The notes below the pieces were generated by a model. That model was not told the DNA's origin. It worked only from the letters and a program-made list of their open reading frames with translations, and made no database searches. The position numbers and the translations under genes were made by a program. A stretch of DNA of 64,000 nt from Escherichia coli. Its GTDB lineage: Bacteria > Pseudomonadota > Gammaproteobacteria > Enterobacterales > Enterobacteriaceae. Below, piece after piece: positions 1 through 29,673 of this stretch (the first letter of the stretch is position 1; each line of letters opens with the position of its first letter). The stretch lies in the NCBI RefSeq assembly GCF_003018115.1, contig NZ_CP027457.1; one strand, given 5' to 3'.

Positions 1-201
1 ATGACCGATGCGCTGTGGTTGACCACACCGTGGACTGATATCTCTGGCGAAGTGGGGCAGATGGATAAGACCACAGTCAAATTTTCGATTCCAATGGATA
101 ACGCCATTTCGCTGCGTACGGTAGATGATAACGGCTGGTTTGGCGAAGTCAGCGCTTCAGGAGAAATTCATGTTCAGGCGACGTGGCGTAACATTAACTA
201 A
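1..201 (+). CDS. ecpD: EcpD fimbrial tip adhesin, C-terminal end (partial, runs off window start)
   Basis: ORF reads into window from upstream; position directly before ecpE in ecp operon order; identity from synteny rather than sequence recognition. Confidence 0.6.
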
Positions 202-880
202 GGCCCTGCTGACAGCGGTCTGTATGCTGGCGGCACCTTTGACACAGGCGATTTCGGTCGGCAATCTGACATTTTCGCTGCCGTCCGAGACTGACTTTGT
301 CAGCAAACGTGTAGTGAATAACAACAAAAGCGCACGGATATACCGTATTGCCATCAGTGCTATTGATAGCCCGGGCAGCAGTGAATTGCGCACCCGACCG
401 GTGGATGGTGAACTGCTTTTCGCCCCCCGCCAGCTGGCGTTGCAGGCTGGTGAGAGCGAGTATTTTAAATTTTACTATCATGGTCCACAGGATAACCGCG
501 AGCGCTACTACCGGGTCTCATTTCGCGAGGTCCCCACTCGTAACCAGACAAGACGCAGCCCAACCGGCGGCGAGGTCAGCACGGAGCCGGTGGTGGTGAT
601 GGATACCATTCTGGTAGTACGACCACGTCAGGTTCAGTTTAAATGGTCCTTCGATCAGGTGACCGGAACGGTAAGTAACACCGGCAACACGTGGTTTAAG
701 CTACTGATTAAACCAGGATGTGATTCGACCGAAGAGGAAGGCGATGCCTGGTATCTACGTCCGGGAGACGTGGTTCATCAGCCTGAGTTACGTCAGCCGG
801 GGAATCATTATCTGGTCTATAACGACAAATTCATTAAGATTAGCGATTCCTGTCCGGCTAAGCCCCCTTCGGCGGACTAA
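170..880 (+). CDS. ecpE: EcpE (YagV) fimbrial chaperone
   Basis: Translation [27 protein letters not shown]... with signal peptide; start chosen at internal Met 170 (overlaps ecpD end), 236 aa. Confidence 0.8.
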
Positions 881-1192
881 GACTTATCCATCGGTCGAGG
901 GAAGAATTCCACTTCAGAGCCCCAAAAATCGTTTAAATGATGTGGAAGCGATCGTCAATATCACCTGTAACGATGGGCTTTCTCATATGCACACCATAGT
1001 GTTCAGGAGACACGGAAAGGTATCAGGCAGCCTGCTAACGAGTGGTTTATTCACGAATTAGTACGTAAAATCGGTAACGGCTGGAAATCATTCAATACTC
1101 ACACTATCGAAAGTTCCCCAGCCAACCGCGGTACGTTCTTACATACGATGTACCGCTGTTCTCTTTACGATTTATAGCTGTACTGGTGAATT

Positions 1193-1522
1193 ATGAGCAA
1201 TCTGAATCCATGCATGACGTGTGGTGCCTGTTGTGCATTTTTCCGCGTCTCTTTTTACTGGGCCGAAGCCGACGATGCTGGTGGTACCATTCCCGCCAGG
1301 CTCACTGAACAAATATCCCCTTTTCACCGATGCATGAGCGGAACTAATCAGAAAAACCCCCGATGTATTGCCCTTGCAGGAACCCCGGGCAAAAATGCCT
1401 GCTGCACGATATATAAAAATCGATCGTCCACATGCAGAGAATTCGCCATGTCTGGTGAGAACGGAGTCGTCAATGAGGCTTGCAATCGTGCAAGGGCTAA
1501 ATACGGGCTGACACCGTTATAA
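1193..1522 (+). CDS. ykgJ: YkgJ family cysteine-cluster protein
   Basis: 109 aa, Cys-rich N-terminus [17 protein letters not shown]; synteny between ecpE and yagU. Confidence 0.8.
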
Positions 1523-1545
1523 ACATACAATAATTAATTGCACTG

Positions 1546-1578
1546 CCCCGCCTACTGTAATAGCGGGGCTTCGTTTTC
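1546..1578 (+). terminator. rho-independent terminator after ykgJ
   Basis: GC stem ccccgc...gcgggg followed by cttcgttttc. Confidence 0.5.
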
Positions 1579-1726
1579 AGGGACAACAAAACCCGAAACT
1601 TATTGTATTTGCCTGCAACAATGCCTCTCTTCTGTAGCGTTCTTCGGATCTACATCATCCTGAAGTAGCACGATATACTCACTGACTATCTGAATCAGAA
1701 TATAAAAAGCAATGTTTTTAACCTAT

Positions 1727-1755
1727 AAAAATGGCGCTGTATTTGCGCCATTTTT
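1727..1755. terminator. bidirectional hairpin between ykgJ and yagU (convergent)
   Basis: Perfect inverted repeat aaaaatggcgc-tgtattt-gcgccattttt flanked by A/T runs on both sides. Confidence 0.55.
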
Positions 1756-1768
1756 ATCATTCAATGCA

Positions 1769-2383
1769 TTATCTGTTTGAGCCTAAAGGGATCTCAGGGT
1801 CTGGCTCATGAGTAATTCTGTTTCGTAAATCTCTGCGAATAATTTCAATGGACCAGAACCAGACTAAATGTCCAAAAATTTCAGAAACATTCTCATACCA
1901 CGGGAGATCAAACAGAGGTGGTGTCAGTCCCATGAGAGGGAATGAAATCATATGAACAAAAAGTTGGGCTAAAGCACCTGCCAGTAAGCCCTGCCAGAGT
2001 TTAATTTTTGGAAATACTTCAGCGACCACACAATAACCGACAGCAAACACTATCGAAAAGATAATGTGCGTAACACCAACCCAGTTAAAGACATGCCCGG
2101 CAAAGGTATAAACAGCCGCATTGGGATCTGTCAGCCCCAGCCAGTCTCGAAGAAAAATATACGGAGGATTGAGAAAATTACGCGAGCAATCAATTTGCCC
2201 AGCAGCCCTGATTAATGATTCCGGGCCACACGCTGCATTAAACATATCCACCGGGCTACGTGGCGGCAATGGAACTTCAGCCCCCCACTTCACAAATGCG
2301 GAAACAACGCCAGCAATCAGCCCAATGAATGCAGCAAGACCATAACGTCTGCGGTTCGGTGGAGTTTGTTCAAATATATTCAT
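1769..2383 (-). CDS. yagU: YagU inner membrane protein (DUF1440)
   Basis: 204 aa hydrophobic protein; synteny next to paoA. Confidence 0.85.
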
Positions 2384-2800
2384 ATCTACCCTGCTTGTAC
2401 CATTATGTTATACACCTCTTCAGGAGTATTCATAAAACAAGGAAAATGTAAAGAACTGTATTGTTTTGTATAACAAGATGGTTGTCTAATCACCAAAGAA
2501 TATAAGCACCATCATTTCTCCCTATTTTTATATTAGAAGTGACATAGATTTGCAGGGTGATGCAGAGCTGACAATCACAGGTTTCCTTATCGGTTTTTGC
2601 ATCGTACAACTAAAGCAATAAAACAGCTCCCATCATCATCAACATCCCGGCGAACATGAATTTATTAGCCGGGCTCATAGCTGCATTCGCGTTTTAAGAA
2701 TAATCCTCCTGCTGTCGCCGACTATGCTTAACGTTTAAAAAAGCATCAGCACTCTCGCAACGCACTCTTATTTTCCCCTTTAGAATACCGGAGGCCTGGT

Positions 2801-3490: not shown

Positions 3491-4443
3491 AGGCGTTTAC
3501 CTATGAACGAGTGAACACCCCGGCCGAGGCGGCACTTAGCGCTCAGCGCGTACCCGGCGCAAAATTTATCGCGGGCGGGACCAATCTGCTGGACCTGATG
3601 AAGCTGGAAATTGAAACGCCCACCCACCTTATCGATGTGAACGGGCTCGGGCTCGATAAGATTGAAGTGACCGACGCGGGTGGGCTGCGCATCGGCGCAC
3701 TGGTACGGAACACCGACCTGGCGGCTCACGAGCGCGTGCGTCGTGATTACGCGGTACTCTCCCGCGCCCTGCTCGCTGGCGCGTCTGGTCAGTTACGCAA
3801 TCAGGCAACCACCGCAGGTAATCTGCTCCAGCGCACGCGCTGCCCCTATTTTTACGACACCAATCAGCCCTGCAATAAGCGCCTGCCCGGGAGCGGCTGC
3901 GCGGCGCTTGAAGGCTTTAGCCGTCAGCACGCGGTGGTAGGCGTAAGCGAAGCCTGCATTGCCACCCATCCGAGCGATATGGCGGTCGCAATGCGGTTGC
4001 TGGATGCGGTGGTGGAAACCATCACGCCGGAGGGAAAGACTCGCAGTATCACACTGGCTGATTTTTATCACCCACCGGGGAAAACGCCGCACATTGAAAC
4101 CGCCCTGCTTCCCGGTGAGCTTATCGTTGCGGTGACGTTACCTCCGCCGCTCGGCGGAAAACATATTTACCGTAAGGTGCGCGATCGCGCCTCCTACGCC
4201 TTTGCCCTGGTATCGGTCGCGGCGATTATTCAGCCTGACGGCAGCGGGCGCGTCGCGCTGGGCGGAGTAGCACATAAGCCCTGGCGCATTGAGGCTGCGG
4301 ATGCTCAGCTATCCCAGGGGGCACAGGCCGTATATGACACGCTGTTCGCCAGCGCCCATCCCACCGCTGAAAACACCTTTAAACTCCTGTTGGCGAAGCG
4401 AACGCTTGCCTCCGTACTGGCTGAAGCGAGGGCACAGGCATGA
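3487..4443 (+). CDS. paoB: Aldehyde oxidoreductase FAD-binding subunit PaoB
   Basis: 318 aa; start overlaps paoA stop (ATGA); FAD-binding molybdopterin dehydrogenase-like. Confidence 0.9.
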
Positions 4444-6638
4444 AATTTGATAAACCCGCAGGGGAAAACCCGATCGATCAGCTGAAGGTTGTCGGTCGTC
4501 CCCATGACCGCATCGACGGACCGCTGAAAACTACCGGCACGGCACGCTACGCCTACGAATGGCATGAAGAGGCCCCCAACGCCGCCTATGGCTATATCGT
4601 CGGTTCCGCCATTGCCAAAGGACGCCTCACCGCCCTTGATACGGACGCCGCGCAAAAAGCGCCGGGCGTACTGGCTGTCATTACCGCCAGTAACGCCGGG
4701 GCACTCGGCAAAGGCGACAAAAACACCGCCAGGCTGTTAGGCGGCCCCACTATTGAGCACTATCATCAGGCCATTGCGCTGGTAGTGGCCGAGACCTTCG
4801 AACAGGCGCGAGCGGCGGCCTCGCTGGTGCAGGCACACTATCGCCGTAATAAAGGAGCTTACTCCCTGGCGGACGAAAAACAGGCCGTCAATCAGCCGCC
4901 GGAAGACACGCCCGACAAAAACGTCGGTGACTTTGACGGGGCTTTCACCTCCGCTGCGGTGAAGATTGATGCTACCTACACGACCCCGGACCAGAGCCAT
5001 ATGGCGATGGAGCCGCATGCCTCGATGGCCGTCTGGGATGGAAATAAGCTTACTCTCTGGACCTCAAATCAGATGATTGACTGGTGCCGCACCGATCTGG
5101 CAAAAACGCTAAAAGTGCCCGTGGAGAATGTGCGTATTATCTCCCCGTATATCGGCGGAGGGTTTGGCGGCAAGCTGTTCCTGAGAAGCGATGCGCTGCT
5201 GGCAGCCCTCGCCGCCCGAGCGGTGAAACGTCCGGTTAAAGTGATGCTCCCCCGCCCCACTATTCCCAATAACACCACGCACCGCCCCGCCACCCTTCAG
5301 CACTTGCGTATCGGTGCCGACCAGAGCGGGAAAATCACCGCTATCTCACATGAAAGCTGGTCCGGAAACCTGCCCGGCGGCACGCCGGAAACGGCGGTAC
5401 AGCAAAGCGAATTACTCTACGCCGGGGCAAACCGTCATACCGGCCTGCGGCTCGCCACGCTTGATTTGCCGGAAGGGAACGCCATGCGTGCGCCCGGCGA
5501 AGCCCCCGGTCTGATGGCGCTCGAAATCGCGATCGACGAACTGGCGGAAAAAGCGGGCATCGATCCCGTCGAGTTTCGCATCCTGAATGACACTCAGGTT
5601 GACCCCGCCGACCCGACGCGCCGCTTCTCTCGCCGTCAGCTTATTGAGTGCTTGCGCACCGGAGCGGATAAATTTGGCTGGAAGCAGCGCAACGCCACAC
5701 CCGGACAGGTACGCGACGGAGAGTGGCTAGTCGGCCACGGCGTCGCGGCGGGCTTTCGCAATAATCTGCTGGAAAAATCGGGGGCTCGGGTTCACCTCGA
5801 ACCAAACGGCACCGTTACCGTGGAAACGGACATGACCGACATTGGCACCGGCAGCTACACCATTCTGGCCCAGACGGCAGCGGAAATGCTTGGCGTACCG
5901 CTGGAGCAGGTTGCGGTTCACCTCGGCGATTCCAGTTTCCCGGTTTCTGCGGGTTCTGGTGGACAATGGGGCGCGAATACCTCCACCTCCGGCGTTTACG
6001 CCGCCTGTGTGAAGCTTCGCGAAATGATTGCCTCGGCAGTCGGGTTTGATCCTGAGCAGTCGCAGTTTGCCGACGGCAAGATTACCAACGGTACCCGAAG
6101 CGCCATGCTACATGAGGCCACCGCAGGCGGCAGACTGACAGCGGAAGAGAGCATTGAATTCGGAACACTGAGCAAGGAGTACCAGCAGTCGACCTTTGCC
6201 GGGCATTTTGTGGAGGTCGGCGTGCATAGCGCGACGGGAGAAGTTCGGGTCCGGCGTATGCTCGCTGTGTGTGCTGCAGGACGCATCCTGAATCCGAAAA
6301 CTGCACGCAGCCAGGTCATTGGCGCAATGACTATGGGCATGGGCGCGGCACTGATGGAGGAGCTGGCGGTGGATGACCGTTTGGGCTACTTCGTTAATCA
6401 CGATATGGTGGGGTATGAGGTGCCGGTCCATGCGGATATCCCAAAACAGGAGGTGATTTTCCTGGATGATACCGACCCCATATCCTCCCCGATGAAGGCC
6501 AAAGGTGTCGGTGAGCTGGGCCTGTGCGGCGTGAGCGCTGCTATCGCCAACGCGGTGTATAACGCCACCGGTATTCGGGTACGCGATTATCCCATCACTC
6601 TGGATAAGCTGCTCGATAAGCTGCCGGATGTGGTTTAA
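4440..6638 (+). CDS. paoC: Aldehyde oxidoreductase molybdopterin-binding large subunit PaoC
   Basis: 732 aa; overlaps paoB stop; xanthine dehydrogenase family large subunit. Confidence 0.9.
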
Positions 6639-20713: not shown

Positions 20714-22171
20714 GTGTCTGAACTGTCTCAATTATCTCCACAGCCGCTGTGGGATATTTTTGCCAAAATCTGTTCTATTCCTCACCCGTCCTATCATGAA
20801 GAGCAACTCGCTGAATACATTGTTGGTTGGGCAAAAGAGAAAGGTTTCCATGTCGAACGCGATCAGGTAGGTAATATCCTGATTCGTAAACCTGCTACCG
20901 CAGGTATGGAAAATCGTAAACCGGTCGTCTTGCAGGCCCACCTCGATATGGTGCCGCAGAAAAATAACGACACTGTGCATGACTTCACGAAAGATCCTAT
21001 CCAGCCTTATATTGATGGCGAATGGGTTAAAGCGCGCGGCACCACGCTGGGTGCGGATAACGGCATTGGTATGGCCTCTGCGCTGGCGGTTCTGGCTGAC
21101 GAAAACGTGATTCACGGCCCGCTGGAAGTGCTGCTGACCATGACCGAAGAAGCCGGTATGGACGGTGCGTTCGGCTTACAGAGCAACTGGTTGCAGGCTG
21201 ATATTCTGATTAACACCGACTCCGAAGAAGAAGGTGAAATCTACATGGGTTGCGCGGGGGGTATCGACTTCACCTCCAACCTGCATTTAGATCGTGAAGA
21301 GGTTCCAGCTGGTTTTGAAACCTTCAAGTTAACCTTAAAAGGTCTGAAAGGCGGTCACTCCGGCGGTGAAATCCACGTTGGCCTCGGTAATGCCAACAAA
21401 CTGCTGGTGCGCTTCTTGGCGGGTCATGCGGAAGAACTGGATCTGCGCCTTATCGATTTCAACGGCGGTACACTGCGTAACGCCATCCCGCGTGAAGCCT
21501 TTGCGACCATTGCTGTCGCAGCTGATAAAGTCGACGCACTGAAATCTCTGGTGAATACCTATCAGGACATTCTGAAAAACGAGCTGGCAGAAAAAGAGAA
21601 AAATCTGGCCTTGTTGCTGGACTCTGTAGCGAACGATAAAGCTGCCCTGATTGCGAAATCTCGCGATACCTTTATTCGTCTGCTGAACGCCACTCCGAAC
21701 GGTGTGATCCGCAATTCCGACGTGGCAAAAGGTGTGGTTGAAACCTCCCTGAACGTCGGTGTGGTGACCATGACTGACAATAACGTAGAAATTCACTGCC
21801 TGATCCGTTCACTGATCGACAGCGGTAAAGACTACGTGGTGAGCATGCTGGATTCGCTGGGTAAACTAGCTGGCGCGAAAACCGAAGCGAAAGGCGCATA
21901 TCCTGGCTGGCAGCCGGACGCTAATTCTCCGGTGATGCATCTGGTACGTGAAACCTATCAGCGTCTGTTCAACAAAACACCGAACATCCAGATTATCCAC
22001 GCGGGCCTGGAATGTGGTCTGTTCAAAAAACCGTATCCGGAAATGGACATGGTTTCTATCGGGCCAACTATCACCGGTCCACACTCTCCGGATGAGCAAG
22101 TTCACATCGAAAGCGTAGGTCATTACTGGACGCTGCTGACTGAACTGCTGAAAGAAATTCCGGCGAAGTAA
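20714..22171 (+). CDS. pepD: Cytosol nonspecific dipeptidase (aminoacyl-histidine dipeptidase)
   Basis: 485 aa, GTG start; MSELSQLSPQPLWDIFAKICSIPHPSYHEEQ. Confidence 0.95.
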   Translation: MSELSQLSPQPLWDIFAKICSIPHPSYHEEQLAEYIVGWAKEKGFHVERDQVGNILIRKPATAGMENRKPVVLQAHLDMVPQKNNDTVHDFTKDPIQPYIDGEWVKARGTTLGADNGIGMASALAVLADENVIHGPLEVLLTMTEEAGMDGAFGLQSNWLQADILINTDSEEEGEIYMGCAGGIDFTSNLHLDREEVPAGFETFKLTLKGLKGGHSGGEIHVGLGNANKLLVRFLAGHAEELDLRLIDFNGGTLRNAIPREAFATIAVAADKVDALKSLVNTYQDILKNELAEKEKNLALLLDSVANDKAALIAKSRDTFIRLLNATPNGVIRNSDVAKGVVETSLNVGVVTMTDNNVEIHCLIRSLIDSGKDYVVSMLDSLGKLAGAKTEAKGAYPGWQPDANSPVMHLVRETYQRLFNKTPNIQIIHAGLECGLFKKPYPEMDMVSIGPTITGPHSPDEQVHIESVGHYWTLLTELLKEIPAK

Positions 22172-22227: not shown

Positions 22228-22785
22228 TTATCCTTCGATAAAAGCCATCCCTGTAAATGTCCGTCTCGGGTTGCCACGTTCAATCTGGTGATGGAACATT
22301 CGCCGCTGCGATTTCAGCACCGCGCTATTTTCCTGTTGCTGCTGCTCCAGCCTCCAGGCAATCAGCAATCGTGCCAGCCGCTTGTTAGCATGCTGACTAC
22401 GCTCTGACTGAACCTTCACGCTAATACCGGATGCCAAATGCGTGGCGCGTACCGCCGAGTCGGTTTTATTGACATGTTGACCGCCCGGCCCCGACGAACG
22501 CAACGTCTCATAACGGATTGCATCCGATTGTTCCTGCTCATCAGCGGTAAAACGCCCAATGCCCAGAAACCAGTTTTTGCGCCCATGATGAGGCCGATAC
22601 GGACTCGGACAAATCCACTGAATAGTGCCACACCAGCTTTCGCTTAATGCCCATGCGTTATCGCCATCCAGAGAAACCAGCGCCGAACGCAGCGTGTCAG
22701 AGTAGCAGCCCGTTTCTGTTTCCAGCACCGTTACCGCGACGTCTTGTCGGGTAAAAACGACCAACAGAGAAGAACGCTGCGCCAA
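22228..22785 (-). CDS. prfH: Peptide chain release factor homolog PrfH (probably 5'-truncated as in K-12)
   Basis: Contains SGPGGQHVN (GGQ motif); 185-aa ORF overlapping ykfJ remnant. Confidence 0.75.
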
Positions 22786-22963
22786 TCGGGTAGCCGCGTC
22801 CGGGGTGTAAATCTGGCATCCCCACTACGCGCTGCATGTTGGGTAAATTTGCCGTGGTGTGTAATTGTTGGATCGCTAAACTCTCGATCCACAGGTCATC
22901 AGATGCGATGGTAAATACCGCATCGGATAAGGGAAGAATATATTTGCCCATGTACCATTCCAT
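22697..22963 (-). pseudogene. ykfJ: RtcB-like RNA ligase N-terminal fragment (ykfJ)
   Basis: [16 protein letters not shown] resembles the RtcB N-terminal motif; only ~70 aa of homology before reading out of frame into prfH. Confidence 0.6.
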
Positions 22964-23268: not shown

Positions 23269-23721
23269 TTAATGTTGCGGTTTATATCGCATATAAAAAT
23301 TAGTAAACCACGCTCCCCGGCATTCAACGCGCTGCTGCTTAACTGTCTGAAAACCATAACGTTCAAAAAAGGGTTTTGCGGTTATGCTGGCATCTACCGT
23401 AAGTTCGGATTCAGACTTAATCAATGGTTTTAACAAGGCGCTGGCAACCCCGCGGCGGGTGTATTCAGGGTCAACAAATAACATATCGATATAACGTTCA
23501 ATGCGGGAAATAAAACCAACCGGTTGTGCATTAATGACGGCAACCCGCACTTGTGATTTCGCGAGTTTCTCCTTCCAGCGAGATTCGTCAATCTGCGCCC
23601 AGGCGGCAATTTGTTGTGGAGAATAGTGCTGACTGGAGGTCATCGTAACCGCTCTAATGAAAATAGCGCATAGTTGCTGAAAATCGCCAGGCTGATAGTT
23701 TCTTATTTGTATGTTATTCAT
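23269..23721 (-). CDS. yafP: GNAT family acetyltransferase YafP
   Basis: 150 aa [25 protein letters not shown]; ATG overlaps dinB stop. Confidence 0.9.
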
Positions 23722-24773
23722 AATCCCAGCACCAGTTGTCTTTCCATTTGCGGATCCAGCAACGTCACATGCAGCCCCACCAGTCGCACACCGCGCCCGC
23801 CGCGGCGTTCATCCCAGGTTTTACGCGCGGTGGCGATTAAGTCAGCTTTATTCAGCCGCGGCCAGACGTGCTCCTGGGTGGTTTGCTGAAAATCGTCGAA
23901 CTTTAATTTCACCCCCTGGCGAGCAATCAGTAAATCAGGTTTTACCTTTGCCAGACGGCGTTCAAGTTCCGGATACAGCCGCTCGATAATCGCTTCACAT
24001 TCAGACCAGTGATGAATATCTTCCGCCATCGTGCGTTCCACGCCGACGGATTTTCGCAACCGTTCGCTGTTAACATCGCGTTCGTCAATCCCCTGACTAC
24101 GCTCCCACAAAATGCGGCCAAATTTGCCAAAGCGTTTAAGCAGCATCACCAGATCACACTTTTGTACATCACCGCAGGTCCGCAGCCCCATCGCTTCCAG
24201 TTTTGCCGCCGAGACTTTGCCGACGCCGGGGATTTTTGCCAGTGGTAAGGTTTGTAAAAATGCCGGAACTTCTGCCGGCGTAATCACAAACTGGCCGTTG
24301 GGTTTATTCATGTCGGAGGCGATTTTGGCGAGAAACTTTACTGGTGCCACGCCCGCAGACGCCGTCAGTTGCAGCTCGTTGAAAATCGTCTGGCGGATTT
24401 CCTGGGCAATGAGGGTCGCAGAACCGTGGCAATGGACGCTGTCGGTGACATCGAGATAAGCCTCATCCAGTGACAACGGCTCAATGCGAGAGGTGTAGCG
24501 CGAGAAGATTTCACGGATATGATTTGAGGCTTCTTTGTAGGCGTCAAAGCGCCCCGGAAGCAAGGTGAGATGTGGGCATAATTTGAGCGCCATCCCTGTC
24601 GGCATAGCGCTGCGTACGCCAAATTTACGCGCGGGATAATTAGCGGTGCTGATCACCCCCCGACGTTCGCGGCTGCCGCCAATAGCAATAGGGATATCGC
24701 GCAGGGCGGGATTGTCGCGCATCTCCACTGCGGCGAAAAAGCAGTCCATATCCACATGAATGATTTTACGCAT
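23718..24773 (-). CDS. dinB: DNA polymerase IV
   Basis: 351 aa [33 protein letters not shown] (Y-family polymerase). Confidence 0.95.
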
Positions 24774-24787
24774 TACTCACCTCTCAA

Positions 24788-24805
24788 CACTGGTAAAGTA
24801 TACAG
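24788..24805 (-). promoter_or_regulatory. LexA (SOS) box upstream of dinB
   Basis: Reverse complement CTGTATACTTTACCAGTG fits CTGT-N8-ACAG. Confidence 0.75.
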
Positions 24806-24843
24806 TGATTTCAGGGTTTGAGAAATGCGTAAAGATTCAGCAT

Positions 24844-25575
24844 TTAGCGCGTTCGCTGCGAAAGCACCTGCTGCTTATCCAGCTTTTGCACCAGCGGCTG
24901 CACCACTTTATCCCCATGCTGACCAAAGTATTGATACAGCGTATCGGACGCACTTTTGGTCAGCACCATAATCTCAATACGCCGATTGCCCGCGCTTTGC
25001 GGATTTTTGGCATCCAGCAGCATCTGGTCAGCCATTGCGCTTACCTGCATCACTTTATCTTCCGGCATTCCGGCCTCTTCCAGCACCCGACGAGCCGAAA
25101 GCGCGCGGTCACCCGAAAGGTTCCAGTTGTTGTAGATATTGTTTTTGTAAGCCATCGCATCGGTATGCCCGGTAATAATAATTTTGTTATCGAGCGAGTC
25201 GAACACTGGCGCGAGCTCCACCAGCAAAGTTTTAAAGAACGGCATAATCTGCGCGCTGCCGCGTTCGAACATATTGCGATTCTGGTCGTCTTTAATCAGC
25301 ACGCGTAATCCCTGCGGGACAATCTCCATCTCCAGATTCGCTTCCATATGCGCATCACGGGCAATGGTGTTGATACTGGTTGCCAGCTCGCCAAGCTCGG
25401 TGGCGGATTTCTTCTTCAGCAGCGCCGTTTTCTCATTCACATCACGCGCTTTTTTCTCCGTCTCTTCCGGCACCGCCACGGTGGCAGGTTTTGGCGGATG
25501 AGACGGGCTGATTTTATTTAACGGCGACAGCCCACCACCGTTAAAAATCGACTGCCCGTGCAGCGCGGCGATAAT
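24844..25575 (-). pseudogene. lafU: lafU (mbhA) MotB-like flagellar motor protein, 5'-truncated; Flag-2 remnant
   Basis: C-terminal OmpA-like domain (NWNLSGDRALSARRVLEEAGM... RRIEIMV) present, N-terminal TM segment absent; upstream part of ORF is antisense of lfhA fragment. Confidence 0.75.
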
Positions 25576-25599
25576 GCTTTCACGCTCGGATTTACTGAC

Positions 25600-27313
25600 G
25601 CTGTTGACAATCAACTTTATCGTCGTCACCAAAGGGGCCGAGCGTATTTCCGAGGTTTCTGCCCGCTTTACCCTGGACGCGATGCCCGGCAAACAGATGG
25701 CGATTGACGCCGACCTTAACGCCGGGTTGATCAACCAGGCGCAGGCGCAAACCCGGCGTAAAGATGTCGCCAGCGAGGCCGATTTCTACGGCGCGATGGA
25801 CGGGGCGTCAAAGTTTGTGCGCGGGGATGCCATCGCCGGGATGATGATTCTGGCAATCAACCTGATCGGCGGCGTCTGTATCGGGATCTTCAAATACAAC
25901 CTGAGCGCCGACGCCGCCTTCCAGCAATATGTGCTGATGACCATCGGCGATGGGCTGGTGGCGCAGATCCCTTCCCTGCTGCTCTCCACCGCGGCGGCGA
26001 TTATCGTCACCCGCGTCAGCGACAACGGCGATATCGCCCATGACGTGCGCCACCAGCTGCTGGCAAGCCCGTCGGTGCTCTACACCGCTACCGGGATCAT
26101 GTTCGTGCTGGCGGTGGTACCGGGGATGCCGCACCTGCCGTTTTTGCTGTTCAGCGCCCTGCTTGGTTTTACCGGCTGGCGGATGAGCAAACGCCCGCAG
26201 GCGGCAGAGGCGGAAGAGAAAAGCCTCGAAACGCTAACCCGCACCATCACCGAAACCAGCGAGCAACAGGTCAGTTGGGAAACCATTCCGCTGATCGAGC
26301 CCATCAGCTTAAGCCTCGGCTACAAACTGGTGGCGCTGGTGGACAAAGCGCAGGGCAACCCGCTCACCCAGCGGATTCGCGGCGTGCGGCAGGTGATTTC
26401 TGACGGCAACGGCGTGCTGCTGCCGGAGATCCGCATTCGGGAAAACTTCCGCCTCAAGCCGAGCCAGTACGCCATTTTCATCAACGGCATTAAGGCCGAT
26501 GAAGCGGATATTCCGGCGGATAAACTGATGGCCCTGCCCTCCAGCGAAACCTACGGCGAGATAGACGGCGTGCTGGGGAACGACCCGGCGTACGGGTTGC
26601 CGGTGACCTGGATCCAGCCTGCGCAGAAAGCGAAGGCGCTGAATATGGGGTATCAGGTGATCGACAGCGCCAGCGTGATTGCCACCCATGTGAATAAGAT
26701 TGTACGCAGCTATATTCCTGATTTGTTTAACTATGACGACATCACACAGTTGCATAACCGTTTGTCGTCGATGGCACCGCGCCTGGCAGAAGACTTAAGC
26801 GCGGCGCTGAATTACAGCCAGTTGCTGAAAGTGTACCGGGCGTTACTGACCGAAGGCGTTTCCCTGCGCGATATCGTCACCATCGCCACCGTGCTGGTCG
26901 CCAGTAGCGCGGTGACCAAAGATCATATTCTGCTGGCAGCCGATGTGCGCCTGGCGCTGCGGCGCAGCATTACCCATTCGTTTGTTCGCAAGCAGGAGCT
27001 GACGGTGTATACGCTGAATAATGAGCTGGAAAATCTGCTGACCAACGTGGTGAATCAGGCGCAACAGGGCGGGAAAGTGATGCTCGACAGCGTGCCGGTC
27101 GCCCCGAATATGCTCAACCAGTTCCAGAACACGATGCCGCAGGTAAAAGAGCAGATGAAAGCGGCGGGGAAAGACCCGGTGCTGCTGGTGCCGCCGCAGC
27201 TTCGCCCTTTGCTGGCGCGCTATGCGAGATTGTTTGCGCCGGGACTGCATGTGCTGTCGTATAATGAAGTGCCGGACGAGCTGGAGTTGAAGATTATGGG
27301 GGCGTTGATGTAA
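25600..27313 (+). pseudogene. lfhA: lfhA (fhiA) FlhA-like flagellar export protein, 5'-truncated; Flag-2 remnant
   Basis: Homology starts mid-protein (NFIVVTKGAERISEVSARFTLDAMPGKQMAIDADLNAG); lacks N-terminal TM domain. Confidence 0.75.
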
Positions 27314-29131: not shown

Positions 29132-29392
29132 ATGGCTGCTAACGCGTTTGTTCGCGCCCGAATCGATGAAGATCTGAAGAATCAGGCGGCGGACGTACTG
29201 GCCGGGATGGGGCTGACCATCTCTGACCTGGTTCGCATAACCCTCACAAAGGTCGCGCGTGAAAAGGCATTGCCGTTTGATTTACGCGAGCCTAATCAAT
29301 TAACCATTCAATCAATCAAAAACAGCGAAGCTGGCGTTGATGTTCATAAGGCCAAAGACGCCGATGATTTATTTGATAAATTAGGAATTTAA
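29132..29392 (+). CDS. dinJ: Antitoxin DinJ
   Basis: 86 aa MAANAFVRARIDEDLKNQAADVLAGMGLTISDLVRI. Confidence 0.95.
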   Translation: MAANAFVRARIDEDLKNQAADVLAGMGLTISDLVRITLTKVAREKALPFDLREPNQLTIQSIKNSEAGVDVHKAKDADDLFDKLGI

Positions 29393-29394
29393 AT

Positions 29395-29673
29395 ATGATT
29401 CAAAGGGATATTGAATACTCGGGACAATTTTCAAAGGATGTAAAACTTGCACAAAAGCGTCATAAGGATATGAATAAATTGAAATATCTTATGACGCTTC
29501 TTATCAATAATACTTTACCGCTTCCAGCTGTTTATAAAGACCACCCGCTGCAAGGTTCATGGAAAGGTTATCGCGATGCTCATGTCAAACCGGACTGGAT
29601 CCTGATTTACAAACTTACCGATAAACTCTTACGATTTGAGAGAACTGGAACTCACGCGGCGCTCTTTGGGTAA
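29395..29673 (+). CDS. yafQ: mRNA interferase toxin YafQ (RelE family)
   Basis: 92 aa MIQRDIEYSGQFSKDVKLAQKRHKDM...; 2 nt after dinJ stop. Confidence 0.95.
   Translation: MIQRDIEYSGQFSKDVKLAQKRHKDMNKLKYLMTLLINNTLPLPAVYKDHPLQGSWKGYRDAHVKPDWILIYKLTDKLLRFERTGTHAALFG

Follow-up and report, generated by a model that had tools for sequence, protein, structure and literature searches.

The dinB operon in the 64-kb stretch of Escherichia coli DNA analysed here (the window) consists of dinB and yafP, fused by an ATGA overlap, and lacks the toxin–antitoxin pair yafN-yafO (yafNO). This arrangement is confirmed as a real, ordinary and already published polymorphism; the observation made in the window is a correct re-discovery of a documented strain difference and adds nothing by itself. 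Comparison with related loci suggests that the yafNO-free arrangement is the original enterobacterial one, a reading to which a probability of roughly 0.7 is assigned. Within E. coli, both alleles are old, and exchange or re-derivation of them has taken place repeatedly.

Published descriptions of the locus

Gutierrez et al. (2011, NAR 39:4192; PMC3105422) reported that 40% of 98 genomes and 50% of the ECOR strains carry dinB and yafP only, the two genes being "always fused" by ATGA. The two-gene form was attributed to recombination between two ATGA sequences, and four genes were inferred to be ancestral from E. fergusonii, with at least three losses. Fraikin et al. (2020; PMC7167474) described yafNO as "inserted immediately downstream of dinB", and dinB-yafP as an "undisturbed bicistronic operon" where the pair is absent. 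The first-pass annotation of the window had offered a precise loss or an ancestral state as explanations of the clean overlap, and both alternatives are in print, deletion in the former paper and insertion in the latter.

The two-gene operon of CFT073 and other natural isolates has the same genes as the window, the ATGA overlap, no yafN or yafO and a LexA-box dinB promoter. It occupies the same site, between lafU and the rtcB/prfH-pepD region, and the window departs from it in allelic detail only. A comparable case is relA-mazEF-mazG versus relA-mazG (PMC7167474), in which the presence of a type II toxin–antitoxin pair between two conserved co-transcribed genes likewise varies; the form without the pair is an undisturbed bicistronic operon like dinB-yafP. 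Set against the mazEF case, the insertion site at the dinB locus coincides with the stop/start overlap, and both gene ends are restored by a 7-nt duplicate.

The dinB-yafP junction in the window

The reading of this operon as dinB-yafP agrees with the open reading frames, the ATGA overlap, and the domain and identity matches (Table 1). Positions 23718-23721 are TCAT on the plus strand and hence ATGA on the gene strand, where the junction sequence is CTGGGATTATGAATAAC and these four bases are common to dinB and yafP. The DinB protein of the window is 100% identical in amino acid sequence to that of a K-12-type genome and contains the Pfam domains IMS, IMS_HHH, IMS_HHH_1 and IMS_C. YafP is 96.7% identical to its K-12-type counterpart and matches Acetyltransf_10 (E = 9e-20), Acetyltransf_7 and Acetyltransf_1. 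The K-12 gene order dinB-yafN-yafO-yafP given in the first-pass annotation is confirmed by the RefSeq annotation of the K-12-type genome. The K-12 operon shares with the window the identical DinB, the nearly identical YafP and the promoter with its LexA box, and is 759 bp longer, the additional DNA comprising a second promoter, yafN, yafO and a second ATTATGA heptamer.

Table 1 Features of the dinB operon in the window, and dinB loci outside E. coli.
Feature or locus	Coordinates	Strand	Description	Basis
dinB, operon gene 1	23718..24773	-	DNA polymerase IV, 351 aa	ORF and RefSeq annotation
yafP, operon gene 2 (last)	23269..23721	-	GNAT-family N-acetyltransferase, 150 aa	ORF and RefSeq annotation
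ATGA overlap	23718..23721	-	dinB stop TGA / yafP start ATG	Read from sequence
Heptamer ATTATGA	23718..23724	-	Single copy in the window	Alignment with K-12-type locus
LexA box CACTGTATACTTTACCAGTG	24788..24807	-	Overlaps the dinB promoter -10	Identical to K-12
E. marmotae			Two genes, ATGA overlap	
L046, Escherichia-like lineage			Two genes, GGGTTATAAataatATG, TAA + 5 nt + ATG, gapless versus the E. coli junction; dinB 3' end 88% nt identity	
Citrobacter amalonaticus			Two genes, TAA + 5 nt + ATG, pepD-gpt-frsA-crl neighbourhood	
Kluyvera sichuanensis and lineage L048/L049			Two genes, 2-nt gap	
E. whittamii			Four genes	
Pseudocitrobacter			Four genes	Identified by exact YafN match to WP_015965767.1
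L057, enterobacterium	1-2492		dinB, 98-nt spacer, yafN, yafO, then pepD directly; no yafP	

Five independent complete genomes, among them those of the O169:H41 strains F6326-C1 and 2014EL-1345-2, match a 1.8-kb region of the window with 100% identity, and the fused junction recurs in 2,569 of the 5,426 complete E. coli genomes surveyed (~47%). The junction is therefore not an assembly artefact. All 12 two-gene alleles of E. coli that were sampled share the ATGA overlap, as does E. marmotae. The G+C content is close to 43% for both yafP and yafNO, as against 54% for dinB. In an exact-peptide genome scan, the closest YafP relatives outside the Enterobacteriaceae were actinobacterial GNAT proteins (Bifidobacterium, Cryobacterium and Frondihabitans) with 35-45% identity.

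Absence of yafNO

Searches of the whole 64-kb window by tblastn with K-12 YafN and YafO returned noise only (best E values of 6.3 and 3.6, respectively), and blastn with the 755-nt K-12 yafNO segment gave no match in the window longer than 22 nt. Within the same DNA, no gene for a YafO_toxin protein (PF13957) preceded by a PhdYeFM-type antitoxin gene was found. The absence of the pair had been proposed subject to a search for YafN or YafO homologs between 23269 and 24773; as neither tblastn nor blastn found any, the proposal stands.

The strain might still possess the toxin–antitoxin pair if yafNO were kept elsewhere in the genome, given that the window covers only 64 kb of it and that cassettes of the yafNO family lie at other sites in other genera. 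The genome survey makes this highly improbable. The locus is present in 5,416 of the 5,426 genomes and K-12-type yafNO in 2,847, a number that together with the 2,569 fused junctions gives exactly 5,416. Genomes with the fused junction thus essentially never carry K-12-type yafNO at another site, and in the window itself nothing resembles yafNO. Findings made in K-12 on dinB, yafP or yafNO cannot be carried over directly to the ~47% of E. coli without the pair. The other SOS-linked toxin–antitoxin pair, dinJ-yafQ, is intact at 29132-29673, ~4.4 kb upstream of dinB. The strain is thus without yafNO, as far as the window extends, yet keeps dinJ-yafQ.

Borders of the yafNO segment

Alignment of the window with the K-12-type locus, which had been suggested as a check on the junction, yielded a clean difference of 759 bp, made up of 752 nt and one copy of ATTATGA. 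The 752 nt carry the YafN-autoregulated promoter, yafN and yafO. In K-12 the borders read GGG-ATTATGA-tgtatac... at the dinB end and ...tttat-ATTATGA-ataac at the yafP start, and the window keeps one of the two copies. With the junction as query against yafNO-bearing genomes, the two half-matches overlapped at query positions 99-105, which correspond to the heptamer of Table 1. The 4-nt overlap described in the first-pass annotation is real as the ATGA shared by the two genes, but it is not the extent of the border repeat, which is the 7-nt ATTATGA. This length, as against the 4 nt (ATGA) stated in the 2011 paper, is a new detail.

The heptamer flanks yafNO on both sides in all 13 sampled four-gene alleles, E. 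whittamii included, so that yafNO has the direct repeat at both ends that is expected of a target-site duplication. Only yafN and yafO are encoded in the segment, in which no transposase or integrase was found, and no inverted repeats pairing the two segment ends were detected. The AT-rich operator region of yafN contains three occurrences of the motif ATTATG, and a chance origin of the heptamer is therefore less improbable than 4^-7. In view of this recurrence, and of the lack of a transposase and of terminal inverted repeats, the description of the heptamer as a statistically compelling target-site duplication was softened.

A 7-nt direct repeat placed exactly at both borders of every sampled four-gene allele also speaks for the deletion model of Gutierrez et al. 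(2011). According to this model, four genes are ancestral in Escherichia, and the two-gene form arose several times, in the window included, by recombination or slippage between short direct repeats. Taken together with the evidence described below, the model is considered unlikely to account for the two-gene arrangement, falling clearly behind the ancestry of the yafNO-free form.

Allele states within E. coli

Among 27 Escherichia loci, the spacing from the dinB stop to the yafP ATG takes only the values -4, 755 or 376 nt. The 376-nt form represents a third allele, dinB-yafN-yafP, from which yafO was lost by a 379-bp deletion between TTAT repeats. What remains is yafN, now an orphan antitoxin gene, together with a yafO stub of 10 codons (MRVFKTKLIL*) that ends in a TGA overlapping the yafP ATG. 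This allele is carried by E. coli GPT24-02 (L026 2623-2998) and Escherichia sp. E1V33 (L003 3625-4000), and partial yafNO was found in at most 16 of the 5,426 genomes. The removal of yafO alone in these two genomes demonstrates that microhomology deletions do happen at the dinB locus, a point in favour of the deletion model.

The two-gene and four-gene alleles interleave in the dinB tree and in the yafP tree, and the two trees disagree with each other. Two-gene and four-gene alleles with near-identical flanks occur within lineages, as exemplified by Eco-15 (two genes) and NU14 (four genes), which differ at a single position in 500 bp of immediate flanks. The interleaved trees and the near-identical flanks across states indicate that the state changed repeatedly inside E. 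coli. The near-identical flanks are a point in favour of the deletion model; the changes may have come about by excision across the heptamer, by allele replacement via homologous recombination, or by both.

Signs of operon decay were also encountered, namely an internal stop in yafO of FDAARGOS_1291 (L037 2632-3030) and an internal stop in yafP of E06 (L036 2169-2621). An IS1 element lies within the yafO-yafP region in MINF_8D, EC0026B and SW070919 (matches H31, H13 and H150).

Loci outside E. coli and the ancestral state

The loci listed in Table 1 bear most directly on the ancestral state. The two-gene outgroup loci sit in the same pepD-gpt-frsA neighbourhood. Their presence in E. marmotae, C. 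amalonaticus, Kluyvera, L046 and L048/L049 suggests that the yafNO-free form is probably the older one. At least four lineages outside E. coli, Citrobacter and Kluyvera among them, have two-gene loci whose junctions align with no gap or just a 3-nt indel, which argues against the deletion model. The scan of genome contigs for YafP returned only four Escherichia loci; L046 and its sister allele L047 are present only in Logan assemblies. Two products taken up as candidates for E. fergusonii or E. albertii, P0027 and P0038, proved to come from E. coli and to be frameshifted.

The cassette must also be old, since four-gene loci exist in E. whittamii, in Pseudocitrobacter and, according to PMC3105422, in E. 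fergusonii, and this distribution is in keeping with the deletion model. Pseudocitrobacter provides the only four-gene locus found outside Escherichia. Its cassette shares its left-hand starting point with that of E. coli (stop|TGTATACTA), while the right side consists of a 15-nt spacer and the heptamer repeat is absent. The missing border repeat counts against the deletion model, as identical deletions in other genera would have had no guide.

Mobility and age of the cassette

A relative of yafNO, with a YafO that is 69% identical, occurs as a ~0.9-kb block with sharp borders in three unrelated neighbourhoods (L053/L054, L055, and L056 at ~3647-4542; Klebsiella variicola and others). The neighbours of these blocks are DUF4365/DUF3644 genes, traD and a shufflon, the latter two being conjugation-type genes, and upstream of the yafNO relative lies an operator-like sequence common to the E. 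coli dinB-yafN spacer.

Gain of the cassette by import is shown by L047, the yafO-bearing sister allele of L046. The first ~110 nt of its yafP are 93-95% identical to Pseudocitrobacter and 52% identical to L046. The remaining 330 nt of yafP, in contrast, match L046 with an identity of 90-100%, and the DNA downstream does so with 95% (positions compared: L047 39-482, L046 199-642 and L050 4415-4858). In L047, the cassette, along with some of the donor yafP, was thus imported by recombination from a Pseudocitrobacter-like donor into a native two-gene-type background. That gain by import does occur is a further point against the deletion model.

Synonymous divergence between K-12 and E. whittamii (loci L002 and L006) is 0.29 for dinB, 0.24 for pepD, 0.17 for yafP, 0.088 for yafN and 0.037 for yafO. 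The toxin gene shows 3 synonymous differences where 20 are expected (P = 3e-6), which makes its divergence 6-8 times smaller than the values for the flanking genes dinB and pepD. As yafO is saturated at synonymous sites relative to Pseudocitrobacter, it is not under special synonymous constraint. In a sliding profile the trough of divergence has its centre in yafO and its shoulders in yafN and the 5' part of yafP, which suggests either that the toxin gene was recently exchanged between species or that it went through a sweep. A yafO that appears 6-8 times younger between species than its flanks is at odds with the deletion model. The left part of the cassette (spacer and 5' yafN), by contrast, is ~4% diverged between E. 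coli and E. whittamii, close to species level. This part of the cassette is accordingly old, and exchange from one four-gene locus to another is required; its near-species-level divergence is favourable to the deletion model. The low diversity of yafNO was at first taken as proof of a young cassette, an argument that is weakened by the position of the trough, with its centre in yafO, and by the age of the left part.

The sequence of events that would reconcile these observations begins with yafNO as a mobile type II toxin–antitoxin cassette that landed immediately past the dinB stop. In the E. coli group, the heptamer formed by the dinB stop and yafP start would have ended up on both sides of the cassette. 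Both alleles would since have been maintained across the species of Escherichia. They would have been exchanged through homologous recombination, and the two-gene form was probably also regenerated when excision across the heptamer left no scar.

Combining all of these elements, the published four-gene ancestry would be wrong, and dinB-yafP would be an ancient enterobacterial core operon into which yafNO inserted exactly at the stop/start junction, with the heptamer on both sides. Homologous recombination via dinB and yafP would then have carried the cassette from one Escherichia species to another, and also out of a Pseudocitrobacter-like lineage; the cassette could leave again without a scar. 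As a whole, this composite is given about an even chance. If it is true, the locus acts as a reversible presence/absence switch, which also changes the coupling partner of yafP, either Pol IV or the toxin YafO.

The present analysis differs from that of Gutierrez et al. (2011) in that a 7-nt repeat replaces ATGA, and outgroup evidence points to the polarity opposite to deletion. The 7-nt repeat, the two-gene outgroups, the mosaic allele, the young yafO and the orphan-antitoxin allele conflict with the polarity of the 2011 paper and together make the locus a checkable case of the entry, spread and exit of a toxin–antitoxin cassette.

History of the allele in the window

The 3' end of dinB in the window has G-40/T-37, in contrast to the T/C found in K-12 and in most two-gene alleles. 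Both G-40 and T-37 are present in E. marmotae and E. whittamii, and T occurs at -37 in four of five outgroup genera. The exact 60-mer with G/T is found in at most 58 records and thus represents a minority haplotype. All sampled four-gene alleles of E. coli have T/C at -40/-37. When a chimeric query joining G/T to the K-12 spacer was used, none of the 2,841 yafNO-bearing E. coli genomes exceeded the two-mismatch level (98.2%). As no four-gene match with G/T exists in this set, the window allele is not a recent excision product of any sampled E. coli four-gene allele, and the result tells against the deletion model. The allele represents either an old yafNO-free lineage or an old event; excision without a scar would leave the same sequence as an allele that had never been interrupted. 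Use of the G/T and T/C polymorphisms as a clean marker of never-interrupted versus excised alleles was dropped, because the four-gene E. whittamii locus also has G/T. The window allele is itself a mosaic, with a yafP identical to that of EC2641 and a dinB closest to those of TUM13936 and O157:H7 TR01.

Promoter and translation of yafP

The LexA box upstream of dinB (Table 1) is accompanied by a promoter-like sequence, TTCTCA-16-TATACT, at 24824-24797. The 100 nt upstream of dinB contain two differences from K-12, both outside the LexA box. A search of the window with the strict LexA consensus TACTGTATATAAAAACAGTA, allowing up to 3 mismatches, found no match, the dinB box being a weaker CTG-N10-CAG site. 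As the consensus search missed this weaker site, the box was confirmed by its identity to K-12, where LexA control of the dinB box is established (literature cited in PMC3105422 and PMC2814082). With the box intact, SOS control of the operon is expected by virtue of sequence identity. In the two-gene strain CFT073, expression of both genes from one mRNA and SOS-induced production of YafP were shown with a YafP-YFP fusion and qPCR (PMC3105422), and the identical architecture of the window suggests the same for its operon. A simple scan found no intrinsic terminator downstream of yafP.

Pairing with the anti-Shine-Dalgarno (SD) sequence upstream of yafP is weak (-4.0 kcal/mol), and the GGGA involved is 2-3 nt from the ATG, which is too close. 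For comparison, the dinB SD has a value of -7.1 and yafP in K-12 one of +0.4. The dinB stop thus overlaps the start of a gene that has no strong SD of its own. Given the ATGA overlap and the lack of a usable SD, YafP is most likely produced by termination–reinitiation. A single transcript from the LexA-repressed dinB promoter would yield Pol IV and then the GNAT acetyltransferase YafP, as ribosomes that end dinB would re-initiate on the spot. Such translational coupling would tie YafP output to that of Pol IV. The "translational frameshifting" suggested in the 2011 paper (PMC3105422) is not needed, as yafP has its own ATG.

In K-12 a distance of 9 nt separates the yafO stop from the yafP ATG, which likewise lacks an SD, and yafP translation would consequently be coupled to yafO rather than to dinB. 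A second promoter, autoregulated by YafN, is located upstream of yafN in K-12 (PMC2814082), from which yafP should also be reachable. In the window, YafP output would therefore depend solely on how dinB is transcribed and translated; in K-12 it may also follow the toxin–antitoxin module. More generally, in strains without yafNO, yafP would be expressed only from the LexA/RpoS-controlled dinB promoter, and it is probably coupled to Pol IV translation.

Flanking genes

Two remnants of the Flag-2 lateral flagellar cluster lie upstream of dinB in the region 24844-27313, namely lafU and an flhA-like gene truncated at its N-terminal end (lfhA). At this position in 2013C_3963, FDAARGOS_1291 and E. 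marmotae, lafU is longer and is followed by motA and a gene for a fliA-type sigma factor; motA is frameshifted in 2013C_3963. Downstream of yafP, only rtcB remnants and a prfH open reading frame are found at 22228-22963, and an intact rtcB-prfH occupies the corresponding site in XJ55, Eco-15 and NU14. The pepD gene is intact in the window and includes a run of 7 G at 21255-21261. The otherwise identical F9792 record has 6 G at this position and is annotated as frameshifted, so that either the window comes from a sister genome or the F9792 record contains a homopolymer error.
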